A DNA stretch of 5,760 bases from a virus: the IMG/VR virus record IMGVR_UViG_3300029391_000100. The stretch is one strand, 5' to 3'. Numbering within the stretch: position 1 is the first letter of the stretch; each line of letters opens with the position of its first letter. A program made the position numbers and the translations under genes. The notes under the pieces were generated by a model, which searched no databases, was not told the DNA's origin, and saw only the letters and a program-made list of their open reading frames with translations. This document shows, piece by piece, positions 149 to 5,760 of the stretch.

Positions 149-177
149 GATTATACTATATATTTTGTCGTCTGTCA
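149..177 (-). promoter_or_regulatory. Consensus sigma70/sigmaA-type promoter on the minus strand: -35 TTGACA (177..172), 17-nt spacer, -10 TATAAT (154..149), preceded by an A-tract
   Basis: Forward 149..154 'attata' is the reverse complement of TATAAT. Forward 172..177 'tgtcaa' is the reverse complement of TTGACA. The spacer 155..171 is 17 nt. The minus strand upstream reads 'caaaccaaaaaacaa', which is UP-element-like. The -10 lies 25 nt before the peptidase ATG. Confidence 0.7.
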
Positions 178-196
178 ATTGTTTTTTGGTTTGAAT

Positions 197-269: not shown

Positions 270-1274
270 TCATACTTTTGGCTCACGCCACTTTTGTTTT
301 AGCTTGTCCTTTTCTTTTTGAATATTGAGATAGGTTTCATAATCCACGCTTGTGCTCTGTTCGAGATTGACCAAACTTTGTATTGCACTGCGTCTGCGTC
401 TGGCTCTAACCTCTCTCAGCTCGTCAGAATGTGCCTTAAAATAGCTTTCTTTGTCTTGGCTGGTATCTTTATCTAGAATCTTATCAAAATAGCGTGGAGG
501 CCTTTTTTCGCGTCCTCCTGCGCATATGATGCTATCTGTTTTTAAGATTTCATCTTTGTGCTCGTTTAGATATTTTTCGCCGATACCTTTCGACATGATT
601 CTAAACTCTGGTTCTCGACCTTCCATCCAGTATTTTACTGATTGTTCTGTCCCTATAGCTTTTTTGTTGACGTATTGTGCCACGTATGCGAAACTTCCCG
701 GTTGTGCTGGTGAAAAGTCTATCATGCCTTTGCCCCATATTTTTTGTAGCCACTCGCTTTTAAAATAGCTGTTGCCCTTTTGGTTTTTATACCATTGTGC
801 ATCAGGCGGTTTTAGTCCAAATACTATTGCATGATAGTGTGGTCTTTTTGTTCTGTCACCATATTCAGCCGCTAGGAAATATTTTATCGGCTTCTTGTAC
901 GCTTTCCGCAGCCGTTTTAGAAATAGCTGCACGTCTCGTTTGCTTACTGTCTGACTTTGTATGCTTTTGTATCCTTTGATGATTTCGCCGTAGGGTATAT
1001 GGTCGTCGTCATACGTCAGTGTTAGAAAAATCACATCGTCCCACTCTTTGGCTTCTAGCTCTATTCTGGTTGCCCATTGGTCTGCTATCTGTTTGCGGCA
1101 ATACTCGCATTTACCGCATGGTAACAATGCGAATTTTCCTTTTTTGATTCCGTCCATGATGTCCGCTTGCAGTCCTTGTTTTGATAGGTTTTCCAGACTT
1201 CCCCACAGTTTCGGTTTTTTCATATCCATTTGAAATACTAATGGTTTTGTACATGGCATTTTTGTTACCGGCAC
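270..1274 (-). CDS. Rolling-circle replication initiation protein (Microviridae VP4 / phiX174 gpA-like Rep). The probable true start is the ATG at 1259 (MPCTKPL...); the track start at 1274 is a GTG.
   Basis: Superfamily I Rep motifs are present: motif 1 FLTLTY, motif 2 HYHAIVF and motif 3 YVAQYVNKK with a double Tyr. The N-terminus has the Cys-rich segment PCGKCEYCR typical of gokushovirus VP4. Positions 1272..1274 are 'cac' (GTG), and the first ATG is the reverse complement of 'cat' at 1257..1259. The stop TGA is the reverse complement of 270..272. Confidence 0.9.
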   Translation of the reverse strand: MPVTKMPCTKPLVFQMDMKKPKLWGSLENLSKQGLQADIMDGIKKGKFALLPCGKCEYCRKQIADQWATRIELEAKEWDDVIFLTLTYDDDHIPYGEIIKGYKSIQSQTVSKRDVQLFLKRLRKAYKKPIKYFLAAEYGDRTKRPHYHAIVFGLKPPDAQWYKNQKGNSYFKSEWLQKIWGKGMIDFSPAQPGSFAYVAQYVNKKAIGTEQSVKYWMEGREPEFRIMSKGIGEKYLNEHKDEILKTDSIICAGGREKRPPRYFDKILDKDTSQDKESYFKAHSDELREVRARRRRSAIQSLVNLEQSTSVDYETYLNIQKEKDKLKQKWREPKV

Positions 1275-1334
1275 AAGCTTCCTTGTCTATCTTGTGCCGA
1301 TTGACACCTCGCTTCCTTTATATATTAACTTGTT

Positions 1335-1561: not shown

Positions 1562-1591
1562 AAAAAAAGGGGGATGTTTTACCATCCCCCT
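1562..1591 (-). terminator. Rho-independent terminator on the minus strand immediately after VP2
   Basis: A perfect 9-bp stem (1568..1576 'agggggatg' and 1583..1591 'catccccct') has a 6-nt loop. On the minus strand it is followed by a run of 7 U (forward A-run 1562..1568). The VP2 stop TAA is at 1601..1599. Confidence 0.75.
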
Positions 1592-1598
1592 TCCTTTC

Positions 1599-2471
1599 TT
1601 AGTCTCCTGTGTATGATTTTCCAGATTTGAATCCATCTATTAGTTTGCGTCTTCTTGCTGTCTTGTTGATAGTATCTTCTGCTATTTTGTCAACACCTTC
1701 TTTGGCTGCTTTACCAGCCTTTCCTACTGCGTCTTTCGCTGCTTTACCAGCTTTCGAAAGACCCGCGCCTAACTTGTTAGCTGCATAGCTGTATTGCTGC
1801 GCCTGTTTTGCGCTTGAGGTTGCCAGCTCGCTCGCTGCCTGTTCCCAGCTTTTCGCATTCTTAAACTGTTTTGCGCTGGTGGCCTGTTTTGCCAGGTTCA
1901 AGTATTTGTCTGCTAGCTCTGCTGTGTTGTTGCCGTATTCGTACATAGCGGATACACTTGCCGCTTGTGCGCTCTGTTGGTTATAACGTTGGCTTCCAAT
2001 GCTTGCAGATGCTCCCGATGGTGCGCTTGTTGCACCGTTGGTCGCTGCCAGAATAGGATTGATGCCCGCTGCAATCATGTCCTTTACGGTATCCTGATAG
2101 GCCGTTCCGCGCATTTCCTTTTGAAACGCTCGTTCTGCTGCTGCTTCTGCGCTGTTGTACTTCTTGGCGCTTGCTTGGCTTCCAGCATTCGCAAGGTTGC
2201 TCAGTAGCCCGCTCATCATTTGTAGTGCGTTTGCGGTGTTTACACTGCTTTGGTTACCAAATGTTGCAATGCCTGTTGGCGTGCTGATTTGTGTTGAACC
2301 TATCTGCTGTGGTGCTGTTACACTGCCGGTTGTGGTCTCGCTGCCGGTTGTGGTTTCGCTGCCTGACCCTTGGCTGTTTTTGGCGCTGCTCTGGTTACTG
2401 CTTGTTATGATGCCTGTTAACATGCTCAGCCCTTTCATGAGGGATGGCAAAAGCTTTAAGAATGTTTCCAT
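1599..2471 (-). CDS. Minor capsid / DNA pilot protein (gokushovirus VP2-like)
   Basis: The 290-aa protein is rich in Gly, Ser, Ala and Gln, with a moderately hydrophobic N-terminal segment (FLKLLPSLMKGLSMLTGII). It sits directly downstream of the major capsid gene, as VP2 does in Microviridae. The ATG is the reverse complement of 'cat' at 2469..2471. Confidence 0.7.
   Translation of the reverse strand: METFLKLLPSLMKGLSMLTGIITSSNQSSAKNSQGSGSETTTGSETTTGSVTAPQQIGSTQISTPTGIATFGNQSSVNTANALQMMSGLLSNLANAGSQASAKKYNSAEAAAERAFQKEMRGTAYQDTVKDMIAAGINPILAATNGATSAPSGASASIGSQRYNQQSAQAASVSAMYEYGNNTAELADKYLNLAKQATSAKQFKNAKSWEQAASELATSSAKQAQQYSYAANKLGAGLSKAGKAAKDAVGKAGKAAKEGVDKIAEDTINKTARRRKLIDGFKSGKSYTGD
2324..2364. 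repeat. In-frame 18-bp tandem duplication inside VP2 (two copies plus a partial third), encoding GSETTT-GSETTT
   Basis: 'ctgccggttgtggtctcg' (2324..2341) and 'ctgccggttgtggtttcg' (2342..2359) differ at one base, then 'ctgcc' follows. The protein reads ...SGSETTTGSETTTGSVT... Confidence 0.8.
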
Positions 2472-2472
2472 T

Positions 2473-2499
2473 CAAAAATAGCCCCGCTTTTGCGGGGCT
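2473..2499 (-). terminator. GC-rich hairpin with U-tract between VP1 and VP2. It is a candidate leaky intrinsic terminator and also sits between the VP2 Shine-Dalgarno and the start codon.
   Basis: The minus strand reads AGCCCCGC-AAAA-GCGGGGCT (8-bp stem, 2499..2480) followed by ATTTTTGA and then the VP2 ATG at 2471. Confidence 0.55.
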
Positions 2500-2500
2500 T

Positions 2501-2509
2501 CCTCCTTCC
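2501..2509 (-). promoter_or_regulatory. Shine-Dalgarno GGAAGGAGG for VP2, 29 nt upstream of the ATG in linear sequence and about 9 nt if the intervening hairpin is folded
   Basis: Forward 'cctccttcc' at 2501..2509 is the reverse complement of GGAAGGAGG. It overlaps the last VP1 codons, and the VP1 stop TAA is at 2512..2510. Confidence 0.5.
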
Positions 2510-4183
2510 TTAAATTCTTTCGATGCCCGGGATGCTGTAGATAGGCATTTCGCGGTACCAGTCTTCGGTGAAGTAGAAGTCACATAAGAACTGATGGCTT
2601 TTTGCGCTTGTTACTGCAATCGTTCGGTCAATGTTCTGTGTTCCTTCCTGTATCCACTCTGCTGAGAGACGCGGAAGCGCGTTATAATCGTCCGCATAGT
2701 GCCATGCATCCAAACTAGTCTTGTAGTTAGAACGCATTTCACCGGTTACGTAGGAAGGTTTGTAGCGGTAGTCTGCCCATGCTTCTTGATATCCAAAGAT
2801 TTCGTTATCTTCTGCCGTGCCCTGTGCATAGATTTCACGGTTATACACCGGCTGTTCACCCAGTGCTGCAAGTCTCGGGTCGTAGTAGGTGAATCGCCCG
2901 CCGCGTGTCCACTTTGTCGCAAGCCCTTGCTGGTAGCTGTGTTCCACTCGTACCACTGCCAGACCGATGATGTAGCCGTTTTCGGTCGCTGCATAGTCTA
3001 CCATTTGCTTGCTGCACGTGGTCAGGCTGTATGCTGCCGTATTGCCTAGTGCCTGACCGGTTGTCGTGTCCGTCTGGCTCGTCTGGACGACCTGATTTAC
3101 ATTGATTGCGATGCGTTGCCCGCCGATGTATTCAGGAATTTGAAGTCGGCTGTCTGGTGACGTTACGCCCCATGTGCCCGATAGGAATTCACGGTATCGC
3201 GTGCCGTTGCGTGCATCTGCCTCGAAGATGTGCTGCAGTGCGATGCTCATGCGTAAATCCTGAATGCTGATCGCGCTTACTCCGCTTAGGTCTGCGCCTA
3301 GATAAGCTATATCATCTACTTTTGAGTTTTTGTTATTGCTTCCAGTTACTAGTCCGGTTCCTTTTCCTACAGTGTCGTTTTCAATTGCTGGTGCGTATTC
3401 GCCTGCATTTGGTTGGTTAAAGTAGATTGCATCTTTTCCACCTGCTGTTCCGAATACGCTTAGTTCTCTGTTTTTGTACAGTCCAACTGGTGCATTGCCA
3501 GTCAGGCTGATTTCCACAGGGTCAGTTTTCAACGGCGAAGGCAAACAGGATGTGAAGTAGTCGTGGAATTTGCCTACCTTTGCCGGAAATCGTGCATATA
3601 AGCTTGCTTCGTTTGTGTTTGTCGTTAGATCCGGTCTGTTTACATAGTATTCTTTTGTATCGTTTCCGGGTGTTTCGTCAGTTCCTCCTTCATCGCTTTT
3701 TTTGTACCCCAGCATGAGCGGTGCTTCTAGGTTTTCATCTCTGAACCACTCGTTGTAAATCATGGCGTATGCGCGTGCTGGCAGCGCGTTGACCTTGATT
3801 TTATTTTTTACTTCGGTTGGCAGTCCGAAGTAGTCGCCTATACTGCCATTTACCAGACCGCTTTTGCCTCCGATTGCGCAAGTCGGTGTGCTGTATTCGG
3901 TCTTTTCTGCCCAGTAGTTTGTATCGTTCTCGCCAAACATGTTCTCCCAGTGCTCCCACAGCAGACGGCACGGAACAAAAAAGAAATAGGTATCCATGTA
4001 GCAGTTATCCATGATAGGATAGATGGGAGTACTCATTCGGATAAGGCCGTTAAGTTGTACTTTTGCGGTATCGCCCGGAAGCACCTCATCACAGTAGATA
4101 GGCACCAAATCGCCTTCGTTGATGGTCGTCAACAGCTGGTGACTTCGGTCAAATTTGCTTCGCGGTCGTTCCATTCGTGGCAC
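2510..4183 (-). CDS. Major capsid protein VP1 (Microviridae F-like, gokushovirus type). The start is ambiguous: GTG at 4183 or ATG at 4174 (MERPRSKFDRSH...).
   Basis: The 557-aa protein has the characteristic N-terminal signature RSKFDRSHQLLTTINEGDLVPIYCDEVLPGDT of gokushovirus VP1. Positions 4181..4183 are 'cac' (GTG), and the first ATG is the reverse complement of 'cat' at 4172..4174. No Shine-Dalgarno lies upstream of either start. Confidence 0.9.
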   Translation of the reverse strand: MPRMERPRSKFDRSHQLLTTINEGDLVPIYCDEVLPGDTAKVQLNGLIRMSTPIYPIMDNCYMDTYFFFVPCRLLWEHWENMFGENDTNYWAEKTEYSTPTCAIGGKSGLVNGSIGDYFGLPTEVKNKIKVNALPARAYAMIYNEWFRDENLEAPLMLGYKKSDEGGTDETPGNDTKEYYVNRPDLTTNTNEASLYARFPAKVGKFHDYFTSCLPSPLKTDPVEISLTGNAPVGLYKNRELSVFGTAGGKDAIYFNQPNAGEYAPAIENDTVGKGTGLVTGSNNKNSKVDDIAYLGADLSGVSAISIQDLRMSIALQHIFEADARNGTRYREFLSGTWGVTSPDSRLQIPEYIGGQRIAINVNQVVQTSQTDTTTGQALGNTAAYSLTTCSKQMVDYAATENGYIIGLAVVRVEHSYQQGLATKWTRGGRFTYYDPRLAALGEQPVYNREIYAQGTAEDNEIFGYQEAWADYRYKPSYVTGEMRSNYKTSLDAWHYADDYNALPRLSAEWIQEGTQNIDRTIAVTSAKSHQFLCDFYFTEDWYREMPIYSIPGIERI

Positions 4184-4199
4184 TTGCGCGAAATGGTTT

Positions 4200-4646
4200 T
4201 CACTGTTTCGGTTCGTTTTCCTTCACCTCTTCCCTCTTTTCTTCCTCTTTCTGCTTCGGCTGTTCGTCTTTCTGCTTCGGCTGTTCGGTCTGTTGCATCT
4301 GTTTCAGCTGTTCCAGTGTTTCGGCTGCAGCCTCGGCTTTTTCGTGCATCGTCATGATGTCTTTTGGCATATTTTCGAGGTCGGTGCCTTCGGTGTATAC
4401 CATGCTTTTAGCTTTGATGCTGGTATCCCCCGCTTCCAGCCGTGCGATTGCGCTTGCAAGGTCGTAGCCCTCGCCGGCTCGTTGGATTTTTTCGTATGTG
4501 TTCTCGTTCGGCTGCTCGATGTAGTCGGTTGTGCCGTTTGGTTGCTTTACCGCTTTCCACGTTGGCGCGGTCGTGCTGCCCGGATTGTTTGGTACTCTCT
4601 CGGTCGTCATACCGTAGAAGCGTACCATCACCTCAGGATTTAACAT
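4200..4646 (-). CDS. Hypothetical 148-aa protein with a Lys/Glu-rich low-complexity C-terminal tail. It is a candidate internal scaffolding (VP3-like) protein by position immediately upstream of VP1.
   Basis: It has a strong Shine-Dalgarno: the minus strand reads 'GAAGGAGGcagccaATG'. The C-terminus is ...QTEQPKQKDEQPKQKEEEKREEVKENEPKQ. Assignment as VP3 rests on position and composition only, because I could not recognise a family signature. Confidence 0.6.
   Translation of the reverse strand: MLNPEVMVRFYGMTTERVPNNPGSTTAPTWKAVKQPNGTTDYIEQPNENTYEKIQRAGEGYDLASAIARLEAGDTSIKAKSMVYTEGTDLENMPKDIMTMHEKAEAAAETLEQLKQMQQTEQPKQKDEQPKQKEEEKREEVKENEPKQ
4241..4282. repeat. In-frame 21-bp tandem duplication (two copies, 41 of 42 nt identical) in the tail of the 148-aa ORF, encoding EQPKQKD/EQPKQKE
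   Basis: 'ctttctgcttcggctgttcgt' (4241..4261) and 'ctttctgcttcggctgttcgg' (4262..4282). Confidence 0.8.
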
Positions 4647-5370: not shown

Positions 5371-5760
5371 TTACACCCCCTTTCTGTATTTTTTGGTGCG
5401 TGTGTCGATGTGTACCCACGTGTCATATACGATAATGCCGCATTCATTCGGAATGATTGCATTCAGTTCGTTGGCGATTTCTTTTGCTTTCATTCCATTT
5501 ACTCGAATGTCCGCTGCCATTCCTCGCATGTGATATGAGTACTTTGCACCGCCTACCGCTTCATTCCTTGTTGGTGTCCGGTATCCACTGTTGATGATGA
5601 CAGGTTTTCCGATTTTGTTTCTGAGGATGTCTAGGATTGACACTAGGTAACTGTCTATAAAAACTACTTGTGAACCGTCTTTGCAAGCGAATTCCTTTAC
5701 TTTGAAGTGCTGCCCTACTTTTTTGTTTGCGTCTGTGTCCATGATATAGCTTTCAATCAT
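5371..5760 (-). CDS. Peptidase M15 family zinc D-Ala-D-Ala carboxypeptidase-like peptidoglycan hydrolase; putative lysis enzyme
   Basis: The 129-aa protein has zinc-binding signatures SYHMRGMAAD (H-x6-D) and a downstream VHID, plus SGYRTP, all characteristic of M15/VanY-like peptidases. The ATG at 5760..5758 is the first ATG after the upstream stop, once the circular wrap is taken into account. Confidence 0.8.
   Translation of the reverse strand: MIESYIMDTDANKKVGQHFKVKEFACKDGSQVVFIDSYLVSILDILRNKIGKPVIINSGYRTPTRNEAVGGAKYSYHMRGMAADIRVNGMKAKEIANELNAIIPNECGIIVYDTWVHIDTRTKKYRKGV
5638..5760. repeat. Terminal direct repeat, copy B (circular overlap)
   Basis: Identical to 1..123. Confidence 0.9.

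Follow-up and report, generated by a model that had tools for sequence, protein, structure and literature searches.

The spacer between VP1 and VP2

The DNA analysed here, IMG/VR record IMGVR_UViG_3300029391_000100 (5,760 bases, hereafter the window), is the genome of a gut gokushovirus (Microviridae) of 5637 nt, and an exact 123-nt terminal redundancy at 1-123 and 5638-5760 indicates that the contig is circular. The element under study is the 38-nt spacer which separates the gene of the major capsid protein VP1 from the gene of the DNA pilot protein VP2, and in which a purine-rich Shine-Dalgarno (SD) tract, a GC-rich hairpin and a U-run follow one another up to the VP2 start codon (Table 1). 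Every gene lies on the minus strand and the plus strand is without genes; VP1 ends on this strand with GAA AGA AUU UAA (UAA at 2512-2510). The assignment of VP2 is based on PHROG matches ('pilot protein for DNA ejection' and phrog_18604, E = 9e-127) and on GenBank homologues that are labelled VP2 or DNA pilot protein, while Pfam gave no match for it.

Table 1. Features of the window discussed in the text, in the order in which the minus strand is read from VP1 onwards; the promoter is listed last.
Feature	Position	Strand	Details and basis
VP1 gene, major capsid protein	2510..4216	-	Pfam Phage_F, E = 5e-148; annotated AUG at 4174, probable ACG start at 4216-4214
VP1 stop codon UAA	2510..2512	-	sequence; the Phage_F open reading frame ends here
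Purine tract GGAAGGAGG, strong SD with core AAGGAGG	2501..2509	-	anti-SD duplex of -11.3 kcal/mol
Hairpin	2480..2499	-	5' arm AGCCCCGC 2499-2492, loop AAAA 2491-2488, 3' arm GCGGGGCU 2487-2480; fold, covariation
U-run/spacer AUUUUUGA	2472..2479	-	U5 at 2478-2474; 8 nt from hairpin to AUG; in-frame UGA at its end
VP2 start codon AUG	2469..2471	-	homologous start in class A and class B relatives (see text)
VP2 gene, DNA pilot protein, 290 aa	1599..2471	-	PHROG matches, homologue annotation
Second, stronger terminator-type hairpin	1562..1592	-	after the VP2 stop; stem 1592-1583/1576-1567 (10 bp), loop GUAAAA, U7 at 1568-1562
SD-hairpin-AUG module before VP4/Rep	1257..1310	-	SD GAGGUG 1310-1305, UCAA, 10-pair stem 1300-1291/1277-1268, AUG at 1259
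Sigma-70-type promoter TTGACA-17 nt-TATAAT	150..178	-	12/12 consensus; upstream of the M15 peptidase gene

A single A (2500) stands between the purine tract and the stem. The first-pass annotation, a reading of the same DNA made before this analysis, had described an 8-bp GC stem with the loop AAAA; the length, the loop and the position of the hairpin stand, and the composition has to be corrected to seven G-C pairs and one terminal A-U pair. Its claim that folding brings the SD-to-AUG distance from 29 nt down to about 9 nt is confirmed by counting: read linearly, 29 nt separate the last G of the SD from the A of the AUG, and 1 + 8 = 9 nt remain when the 20-nt hairpin is excluded. The predicted RNA fold, which had been proposed there as a check, is indeed a stable hairpin of -16.6 kcal/mol (z = -4.0), with a probability of 0.93-1.0 for each stem pair in contexts of 100-220 nt. 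The 61-nt context folds with -21.6 kcal/mol, compared to -10.0 +/- 2.4 in shuffles (z = -4.85, 0/200), and the hairpin also forms as DNA (-11.5 kcal/mol, z = -4.2). A VP2 start further upstream is impossible, because a UGA at 2474-2472 stands in the reading frame of the AUG; the first 11 codons of VP2 can be regarded as coding, because they vary synonymously among relatives, and GenBank relatives annotate the same start.

The conservation of the spacer was followed in 51 relatives from IMG/VR and GenBank (VP1 76-87% identical) that carry the element at the same place, 48 of them with full flanks. In these 48 the spacer has an invariant length of 38 nt; its mean column conservation is 96.7%, compared to 78% and 80% at the third codon positions of the adjoining VP1 and VP2, and its mean pairwise identity is 94.9%, compared to 85.2% and 79.7% in the flanks. 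Across 14 distinct variants the core AAGGAG does not change, while the two nucleotides right after the stop alternate between G and A; the U5 is invariant as well. Stem cells are paired in 95.5% of cases as against 22-48% with the partner slid, and the covariation score reaches 0.254 as against 0.057 in shuffles (0/500). In a wider set of 14 distinct 20-nt hairpins three pairs are changed on both sides, and six extra pair types are found where 3.1 are expected (3/500). The covarying pairs are 5, 6 and 8 (C-G, G-C, U-A, U-G): one subclade shows compensatory changes from C-G to G-C at two adjacent pairs, relative L022 has U-A in place of a C-G pair, and L053 has the intermediate U-G. Some relatives extend the stem by insertion of whole pairs (AGCCGGGG..CCCCGGCU, AGCCGGGA..UCCCGGCU). 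As the spacer is conserved and the stem pairs covary, the comparison indicates that the hairpin structure is under selection on the coding-sense strand.

Two other candidates were considered at this place. A function on the antisense (plus) strand was rejected, since the complementary hairpin is followed by UCCUCCUU without a U-run and there are no genes on that strand; a weak 5-bp hairpin GAAUG/CAUUC over the AUG was set aside, since relatives do not keep all five pairs. A search of all Rfam families at a permissive E-value gave no match at the element and three weak sub-threshold matches elsewhere in the window.

Position of the Shine-Dalgarno sequence in related phages

Six genes upstream of VP2 have strong canonical SDs with a gap of 4-6 nt to the AUG, as measured with an 8-mer window. 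The sole SD of VP2 is situated 28-29 nt upstream of its AUG, and the 8 nt AUUUUUGA directly before the start codon form no SD-like duplex. A homologous hairpin (AGCCGGG..CCCGGCU, followed by AUUUU or AUUCUU) is found after the VP1 stop in a distant clade with VP1 ~47% identical, and two layouts can be told apart by the side on which the SD lies. Class A has the order UAA-GAAAGGAGG-A-hairpin-AUUUUAGUAU-AUG with the SD upstream of the hairpin only, and class B has the order UAA-CACAAAAACAA-hairpin-AUUCUUGU-AAAGGAG-AUAAAA-AUG with the SD downstream of the hairpin only. The N-termini of VP2 are near-identical between the classes (L120 MSILAALATGAKLLGGV, L127 MSLLAALATGAKLLGGV), therefore the same VP2 start codon is used in both.

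The sample comprised 105 non-identical post-VP1 regions, counted after manual correction of three start-codon calls and of one threshold case. Class A accounts for 85 regions, class B for nine, and about ten are without a hairpin, although the members of a clade are related and these counts do not represent independent events; lineages with unrelated hairpins (L063-65, L119, L144) are included in the counted classes. Not one hairpin-bearing region of the 105 has an SD on both sides or on neither. The same holds for the 58 microvirus loci found by an independent hairpin pattern scan of IMG/VR (47 distinct class A and five distinct class B), none of which has an SD on both sides or on neither. 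Taken together, the comparison covers about 150 microvirus sequences with a GC hairpin and U-run behind VP1. Every genome without a downstream SD carries an upstream G-rich SD core (GGAG or GAGG), while in the genomes with a downstream SD the upstream tract is without any G. When the hairpin is folded, the SD-to-AUG spacing is 9-13 nt in class A (84 distinct relatives), and the SD of class B stands at 5-8 nt. Moreover, in L101, L132, L133 and L138 insertions of 10-71 nt part the VP1 stop from the module, and the SD is still located 1-2 nt from the stem.

The purine tract thus looks like the real SD of VP2, which would be used across the folded hairpin in the way known from the T4 genes 38 and 25; taken separately, we regard such a bridged SD as probable. 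On the VP1 tree class B is interleaved with class A, which could reflect repeated switching or recombination, and the comparison indicates that closely related phages can use either layout. The module GAAAGGAGGA-AGCCGGG..CCCGGCU-AUUUU is near-identical across clades with VP1 ~47% identical (L061-type; L115-L145 loci). This near-identity, together with the interleaving of the classes, suggests either extreme constraint or recombinational exchange of the spacer and VP2 module. In contig L274 the VP2 start is called 16 codons downstream despite an identical junction sequence: the missing proximal SD misled the start prediction.

A second module with the same order lies before VP4/Rep. Its stem encloses the 13-nt loop AUAGACAAGGAAG and is followed by UAACAAAA before the AUG, with neither a U-run nor a downstream SD, and it folds with -19.8 kcal/mol (z = -3.1). 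Among 24 distinct variants one stem pair occurs as A-U, C-G or G-C and another as C-G or U-A; the SD and the UCAA are conserved, some variants have the stronger SD AAAGGAGGUG, and the spacer downstream measures 4 to 13 nt. Therefore, the lineage employs SD-hairpin-AUG layouts where no termination is involved, a point in favour of reading the VP2 spacer as a split ribosome-binding site (RBS). The loop AUAGACAAGGAAG is near-invariant, with only its positions 10 and 12 varying, and this suggests a bound factor or a role at the DNA level such as a Rep or origin signal.

The start of VP1 also appears to lie at a place other than the annotated one. VP1 probably starts at a non-canonical ACG (4216-4214) and not at the annotated AUG 4174. 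The ACG lies 7 nt after the SD GAGGUG (4229-4224), is invariant in 54/54 relatives that match the search pattern, and sits where distant VP1 genes have an AUG (MNRNSEYNFAQ...). The 42 nt between the ACG and AUG 4174 encode TNRNSENHFAQVPR, a peptide that is identical in 20 of 23 distinct nucleotide variants, and seven of the 11 variable sites fall on codon position 3. Once extended in this way, VP1 aligns with Pfam Phage_F from position 1 of the model and no longer from position 9, and an in-frame UGA (4225-4223) closes the VP1 frame just upstream. A third SD-hairpin-AUG module before VP1 was considered and rejected, as no stable fold is predicted there (z = +0.32) and an ACG start with a canonical SD is the better explanation.

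Putative termination signals and the proposed transcription unit

The stem begins 10 nt after the VP1 stop codon in the sense orientation, and the post-VP1 hairpin is the top-ranked site in a terminator-pattern scan of the window. The tail consists of A, U5 and GA, that is 5 U in 8 nt, which passes the rule of the scan at its weak end; an intrinsic terminator is expected to have a U-rich tract of ~7-9 nt right behind the stem. The homologous hairpin of class B is not enclosed by SD and AUG, and yet it has been retained along with a U-rich tail; therefore the hairpin has a function besides bridging. Other lineages have unrelated GC hairpins with U-runs at this post-VP1 site (L063 and L064, GGGAGGCCC..GGGCCUCCC; L065; L119). 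The same stem sequence (AGCCGGG...CCCGGCU AUU..) is found at 62 non-microvirus loci on large phage contigs as an ordinary, often bidirectional, terminator with the layout AAAAAAU-hairpin-AUUUUUUU. The stop of VP2 overlaps the start of VP4 in the distant clade, and the post-VP1 hairpin is the only terminator-like signal that was found there between the gene of the abundant capsid protein and those of the low-copy pilot and Rep proteins.

These observations indicate that the role of the hairpin which does not depend on the side of the SD is most likely that of a leaky terminator or of a stabiliser of the mRNA 3' end, and we hold such a terminator or 3'-end role, taken by itself, to be quite likely. 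Termination would be expected to be partial, because the U-run is short and the stem is only 10 nt past the stop. In E. coli a trailing ribosome suppresses terminators close to a stop codon, and full efficiency needs more than ~27 nt (PMC4824070).

The terminator-type hairpin after VP2 folds with -23.7 kcal/mol (z = -5.4), and the first two U's of its U7 close the stem. It is found only in the own subclade of the window; the next subclade and the distant clade are without it. The tract UAA-GAAAGGAAGG precedes it, and UAA-GAAAGGA is common to this tract and to the VP1-VP2 element. It could be that the purine tract of the spacer also acts as the upstream A-tract of a terminator. A-to-G changes would turn an A-tract into an SD with the pairing to U kept, and evolution could thereby have passed easily between class B and class A.

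The minus strand carries, in order, the promoter (178-150), the M15 peptidase gene, which crosses the circle junction, three small open reading frames (ORFs), ORF5/VP5, the scaffold protein gene VP3, VP1, VP2, a non-coding repeat region and VP4/Rep. The promoter is the likely start of a transcript that runs through VP1; relatives retain its -35 hexamer, while the -10 hexamer varies. Between the VP4 stop and the promoter lies a small conserved hairpin, GGCGCUAAAGCGCC, at 213-200 (minus). The coding strand carries six copies of UUUCAACA (mostly GUUUUCAACA) at 1354-1518, in the non-coding stretch from the VP2 terminator to VP4, where 0.28 are expected and 0/200 shuffles reach six; in related phages these repeats come immediately after the stop of VP2. 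Such repeats could be iterons or mark an origin or regulatory region.

The nearest GenBank record is Human gut gokushovirus KX513876, with a nucleotide identity of 86.7%. The VP1 protein recurs unchanged on 11 metagenome contigs (ENA, JGI and Logan assemblies); among the matches listed, seven contigs with the identical VP1 are near-complete or concatemeric and come from DNA metagenomes, and their examination for transcript-like ends was uninformative. The ENA scaffold L268 (11.6 kb) holds approximately two tandem copies of the genome.

Alternatives, known systems and a proposed mechanism

The best-supported reading of the spacer is a dual one, in which the hairpin serves as a terminator and also completes a split RBS, and we would give it about an even chance of being true in both parts. 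It had been proposed at the first pass that a terminator lowers the dosage of VP2, that the SD and AUG are arranged with the assistance of structure as in T4 gene 38, and that a single element may set both transcription and translation of VP2: the first proposal is supported by the presence of a hairpin and U-run after VP1 in several lineages, the second by the rule that the SD stands on either one side or the other and by the lack of any other VP2 SD, and the third agrees with every computational test that was run.

Several points weigh against this dual role. On the side of termination, the U-run is short (U5 preceded by A) and is interrupted in class B relatives (AUUCUU). Terminator-like sites are also not enriched in the window as a whole (nine found, 9.3 expected in shuffles), so that a match to the terminator pattern proves little by itself. 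On the side of translation, a near-identical purine tract precedes the post-VP2 terminator with no gene directly after it, thus an SD-like tract beside a terminator hairpin need not be an SD. In ViennaRNA predictions GGAGG pairs weakly with UUUUU via G-U and A-U pairs, and the SD core is unpaired only ~0.2 of the time in the ensemble, which would compete with 30S binding; to this adds the relatedness of the genomes in the class counts. Ribosomes of the Bacteroides phylum do not use SDs, and one relative with 85% VP1 identity (L147, CAVKUS010000079.1) is a 5.7-kb phage contig binned in the metagenome-assembled genome 'Bacteroides sp. CAG:545', the sole match when related sequences were sought in bacterial genomes. 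Such a label is weak and doubtful evidence of a host, and a Bacteroides host is argued against by the canonical SDs and the sigma-70 promoter that the phage carries.

If the spacer were a terminator or mRNA 3'-end stabiliser only, the purine tract would be the equivalent of an A-tract, and low-level translation of VP2 would do without an SD, by way of an A/U-rich leader or of reinitiation after VP1. The tract shared with the post-VP2 terminator, UAAGAAAGGA(A/G)G, would fit such a role, and so would the A-rich tract AAAAACAA that class B relatives have at the same place, the fact that the tract varies from purine to purine only, and the lengthening of the stem by SD:U-run pairing both in the minimum-free-energy fold and in the ensemble. 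The annotated start of VP1 likewise has no conventional SD and AUG, but this apparent lack vanishes given the upstream ACG start. The explanation leaves it unexplained why the G-rich core is present upstream if and only if there is no downstream SD; furthermore, the other genes of the phage all have strong canonical SDs, and the module before VP4 repeats the same layout without a terminator. We therefore consider a pure terminator unlikely.

The opposite simplification, according to which the hairpin only builds or tunes a split RBS and the U-run is an unstructured A/U-rich spacer with little or no termination, also seems rather improbable. It would be in line with the short U-run, whose tail score is 3.4-3.95 compared to 5.4 for the post-VP2 terminator, with the proximity of the stem to the VP1 stop, where a following ribosome can suppress termination, and with the VP4 module, in which a bridging hairpin is found without a U-run. 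However, the class B hairpin cannot bridge anything and is nevertheless kept with its U-rich tail, unrelated hairpins with U-runs stand at the same post-VP1 site in other lineages, and the same stem is terminator-like in unrelated phages.

A signal at the DNA level would be a site for the start of the complementary strand or for packaging; it would act in the single strand that is packaged and that shares the sense of the mRNA. The hairpin forms in DNA too, the site directly follows the major capsid gene, and the compensatory changes keep a DNA hairpin as well as an RNA hairpin. The priming signals of phiX174 and G4 are situated in the F-G intergenic region and are much larger multi-hairpin structures (tens to more than 100 nt), and the element considered here is a single minimal 20-nt hairpin in a 38-nt spacer. 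Such a signal would explain neither the conserved U(T)-run nor the SD nor its either-side rule, one natural variant keeps the stem via a U-G pair, which is better tolerated in RNA, and Rfam gave no family match at the site. Thus we judge a DNA-level role to be very improbable. Just as remote is a stabiliser of the STAB-SD type, in which a 30S subunit bound at the SD-like sequence would block 5'-to-3' exonucleolytic decay of the VP2 mRNA without initiation, as described for cry3A, where an SD-like sequence far from the start stabilises the mRNA by 30S binding (PMC4113751): most relatives do carry the long purine-rich SD GAAAGGAGG here, but this role would leave VP2 without an SD, whereas class B VP2 has one at the canonical distance, and it is in any case compatible with a split RBS rather than an alternative to it.

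The dual reading can be compared with several known systems. In phage T4 the SD-AUG distance is reduced by folding from 22 to 5 nt in gene 38 and from 27 to 11 nt in gene 25, and destabilising the structure lowers translation (PMC3014915, reviewing Nivinskas et al. 1999; Malys & Nivinskas 2009). The gokushoviral spacer resembles these genes: with 22 and 27 nt in T4 and 29 nt in the spacer, the linear distance from SD to AUG is too long for initiation, for which about 15 nt can be taken as the limit; the whole of a stable hairpin fits within it, and folding shortens it to a workable length, which at 9 nt falls between the 5 and 11 nt of T4. Conservation of the stem extends over a clade in T4 as in the gokushoviruses, and more distant relatives do not have it. 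Contrastingly, the hairpin described here has the anatomy of an intrinsic terminator (GC stem and U-run) and follows the stop of a highly expressed gene, it occurs in Microviridae with single-stranded DNA and not in T4-like phages, and some natural variants have a homologous hairpin with the SD on its opposite side. Function was shown by mutation in T4, while in the present case it is predicted from sequence.

The phiX174 terminators TJ, TF, TG and TH provide a parallel from the same family: they are hairpin terminators between structural genes, and TF follows the capsid gene F. TJ, TF and TG each block 20-40% of transcription, and these leaky Rho-independent terminators grade mRNA dosage down the operon. 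PhiX174 belongs to a different subfamily without sequence homology to the element, for which termination is a prediction from sequence; the phiX174 terminator paper describes no terminator inside the RBS of the next gene, although no search aimed at this point was made. In E. coli thrS, with its 'split ribosome binding site', ribosomes accommodate a folded hairpin between two single-stranded parts, and in this respect it is similar to the VP2 spacer. However, the part split off in thrS is a single-stranded platform further upstream, and the SD stands next to the AUG there; the site is a regulatory operator bound by ThrRS and contains no terminator. The likeness to the STAB-SD of B. thuringiensis cry3A is a strong 30S-binding SD-like sequence far from the start codon, but that of cry3A lies ~125 nt upstream and causes no initiation, whereas here folding would give a functional distance and VP2 has no other SD. 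In the ABC importers of Ruminiclostridium cellulolyticum internal terminators set the stoichiometry of subunits: a stem-loop with a U-tract lower in U than the canonical one follows the gene needed in excess, as it does here, stops a part of transcription and stabilises the upstream transcript (PMC9045158). Those are cellular operons, and the abstract of that work describes no overlap with the SD of the next gene.

The following mechanism is consistent with the anatomy and the comparison. Transcription would begin at the consensus promoter and proceed through the M15 peptidase gene, the small ORFs, VP5, VP3 and VP1. Some RNA polymerases would stop at the GC hairpin and U5 after VP1, and the resulting 3' hairpin would also stabilise the VP1-containing mRNA. 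VP2 would thus be transcribed less than VP1, and in many relatives Rep, which follows VP2, would be reduced likewise. By analogy with protein H of phiX174, far fewer copies would be required of VP2 than of the capsid protein with its 60 copies, and the lower transcription would fit this need of a pilot protein. On the transcripts that are read through the hairpin would refold, a step which the natural variants in SD position support. With the stem formed, a gap of 1 nt would separate its 5' base from the SD AAGGAGG and a gap of 8 nt its 3' base from the AUG, so that the 30S subunit could engage both SD and AUG at an effective distance of ~9 nt despite 29 nt in the linear sequence. The output of VP2 would be the product of the read-through fraction and the efficiency of a somewhat stretched, structure-dependent RBS, and the purine tract may further pair weakly with the U-run as the A-tract of the terminator.

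In its full form this proposal is more tentative, and we would not quite expect all of it to hold. One fold would be at once a transcription attenuator and a required part of the RBS, so that VP2 could be translated only when the hairpin has re-formed. The tract would have three roles: SD, partner of the U-run and first sequence met by a ribosome after VP1. The arrangement would be a general architecture of gut gokushoviruses, seen in more than 100 sampled genomes, repeated without a terminator at Rep and interchangeable with the order hairpin-SD-AUG. A literature search found nothing on terminators or split RBSs in Gokushovirinae, although most older papers in subscription journals (e.g. the original SpV4 and Chp2 genome papers) were outside its reach. 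The element would thus appear to join two known mechanisms in a combination that we did not find described, and to be widespread in gut gokushoviruses.

Such an arrangement explains why gene finders disagree, with the VP2 start called at different AUGs across assemblies, and the start of VP1 is probably mis-annotated as well. A composite of terminator and RBS that sets a protein ratio within 38 nt would also be a compact design for synthetic operons. Very few natural RBSs bridged by structure are known, the main ones being T4 genes 38 and 25. If the reading is true, the gokushoviruses would supply one more example, deeply sampled and belonging to another phage family, with natural controls in which the same hairpin has the SD on either side, and with a bridging hairpin that also has the anatomy of a terminator. 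As we found no published description of transcription signals in gut gokushoviruses, the findings would provide a first testable outline of their transcription units: a promoter, followed by the lysis, scaffold and capsid genes, then an attenuator, and then the pilot gene, together with Rep in many relatives.

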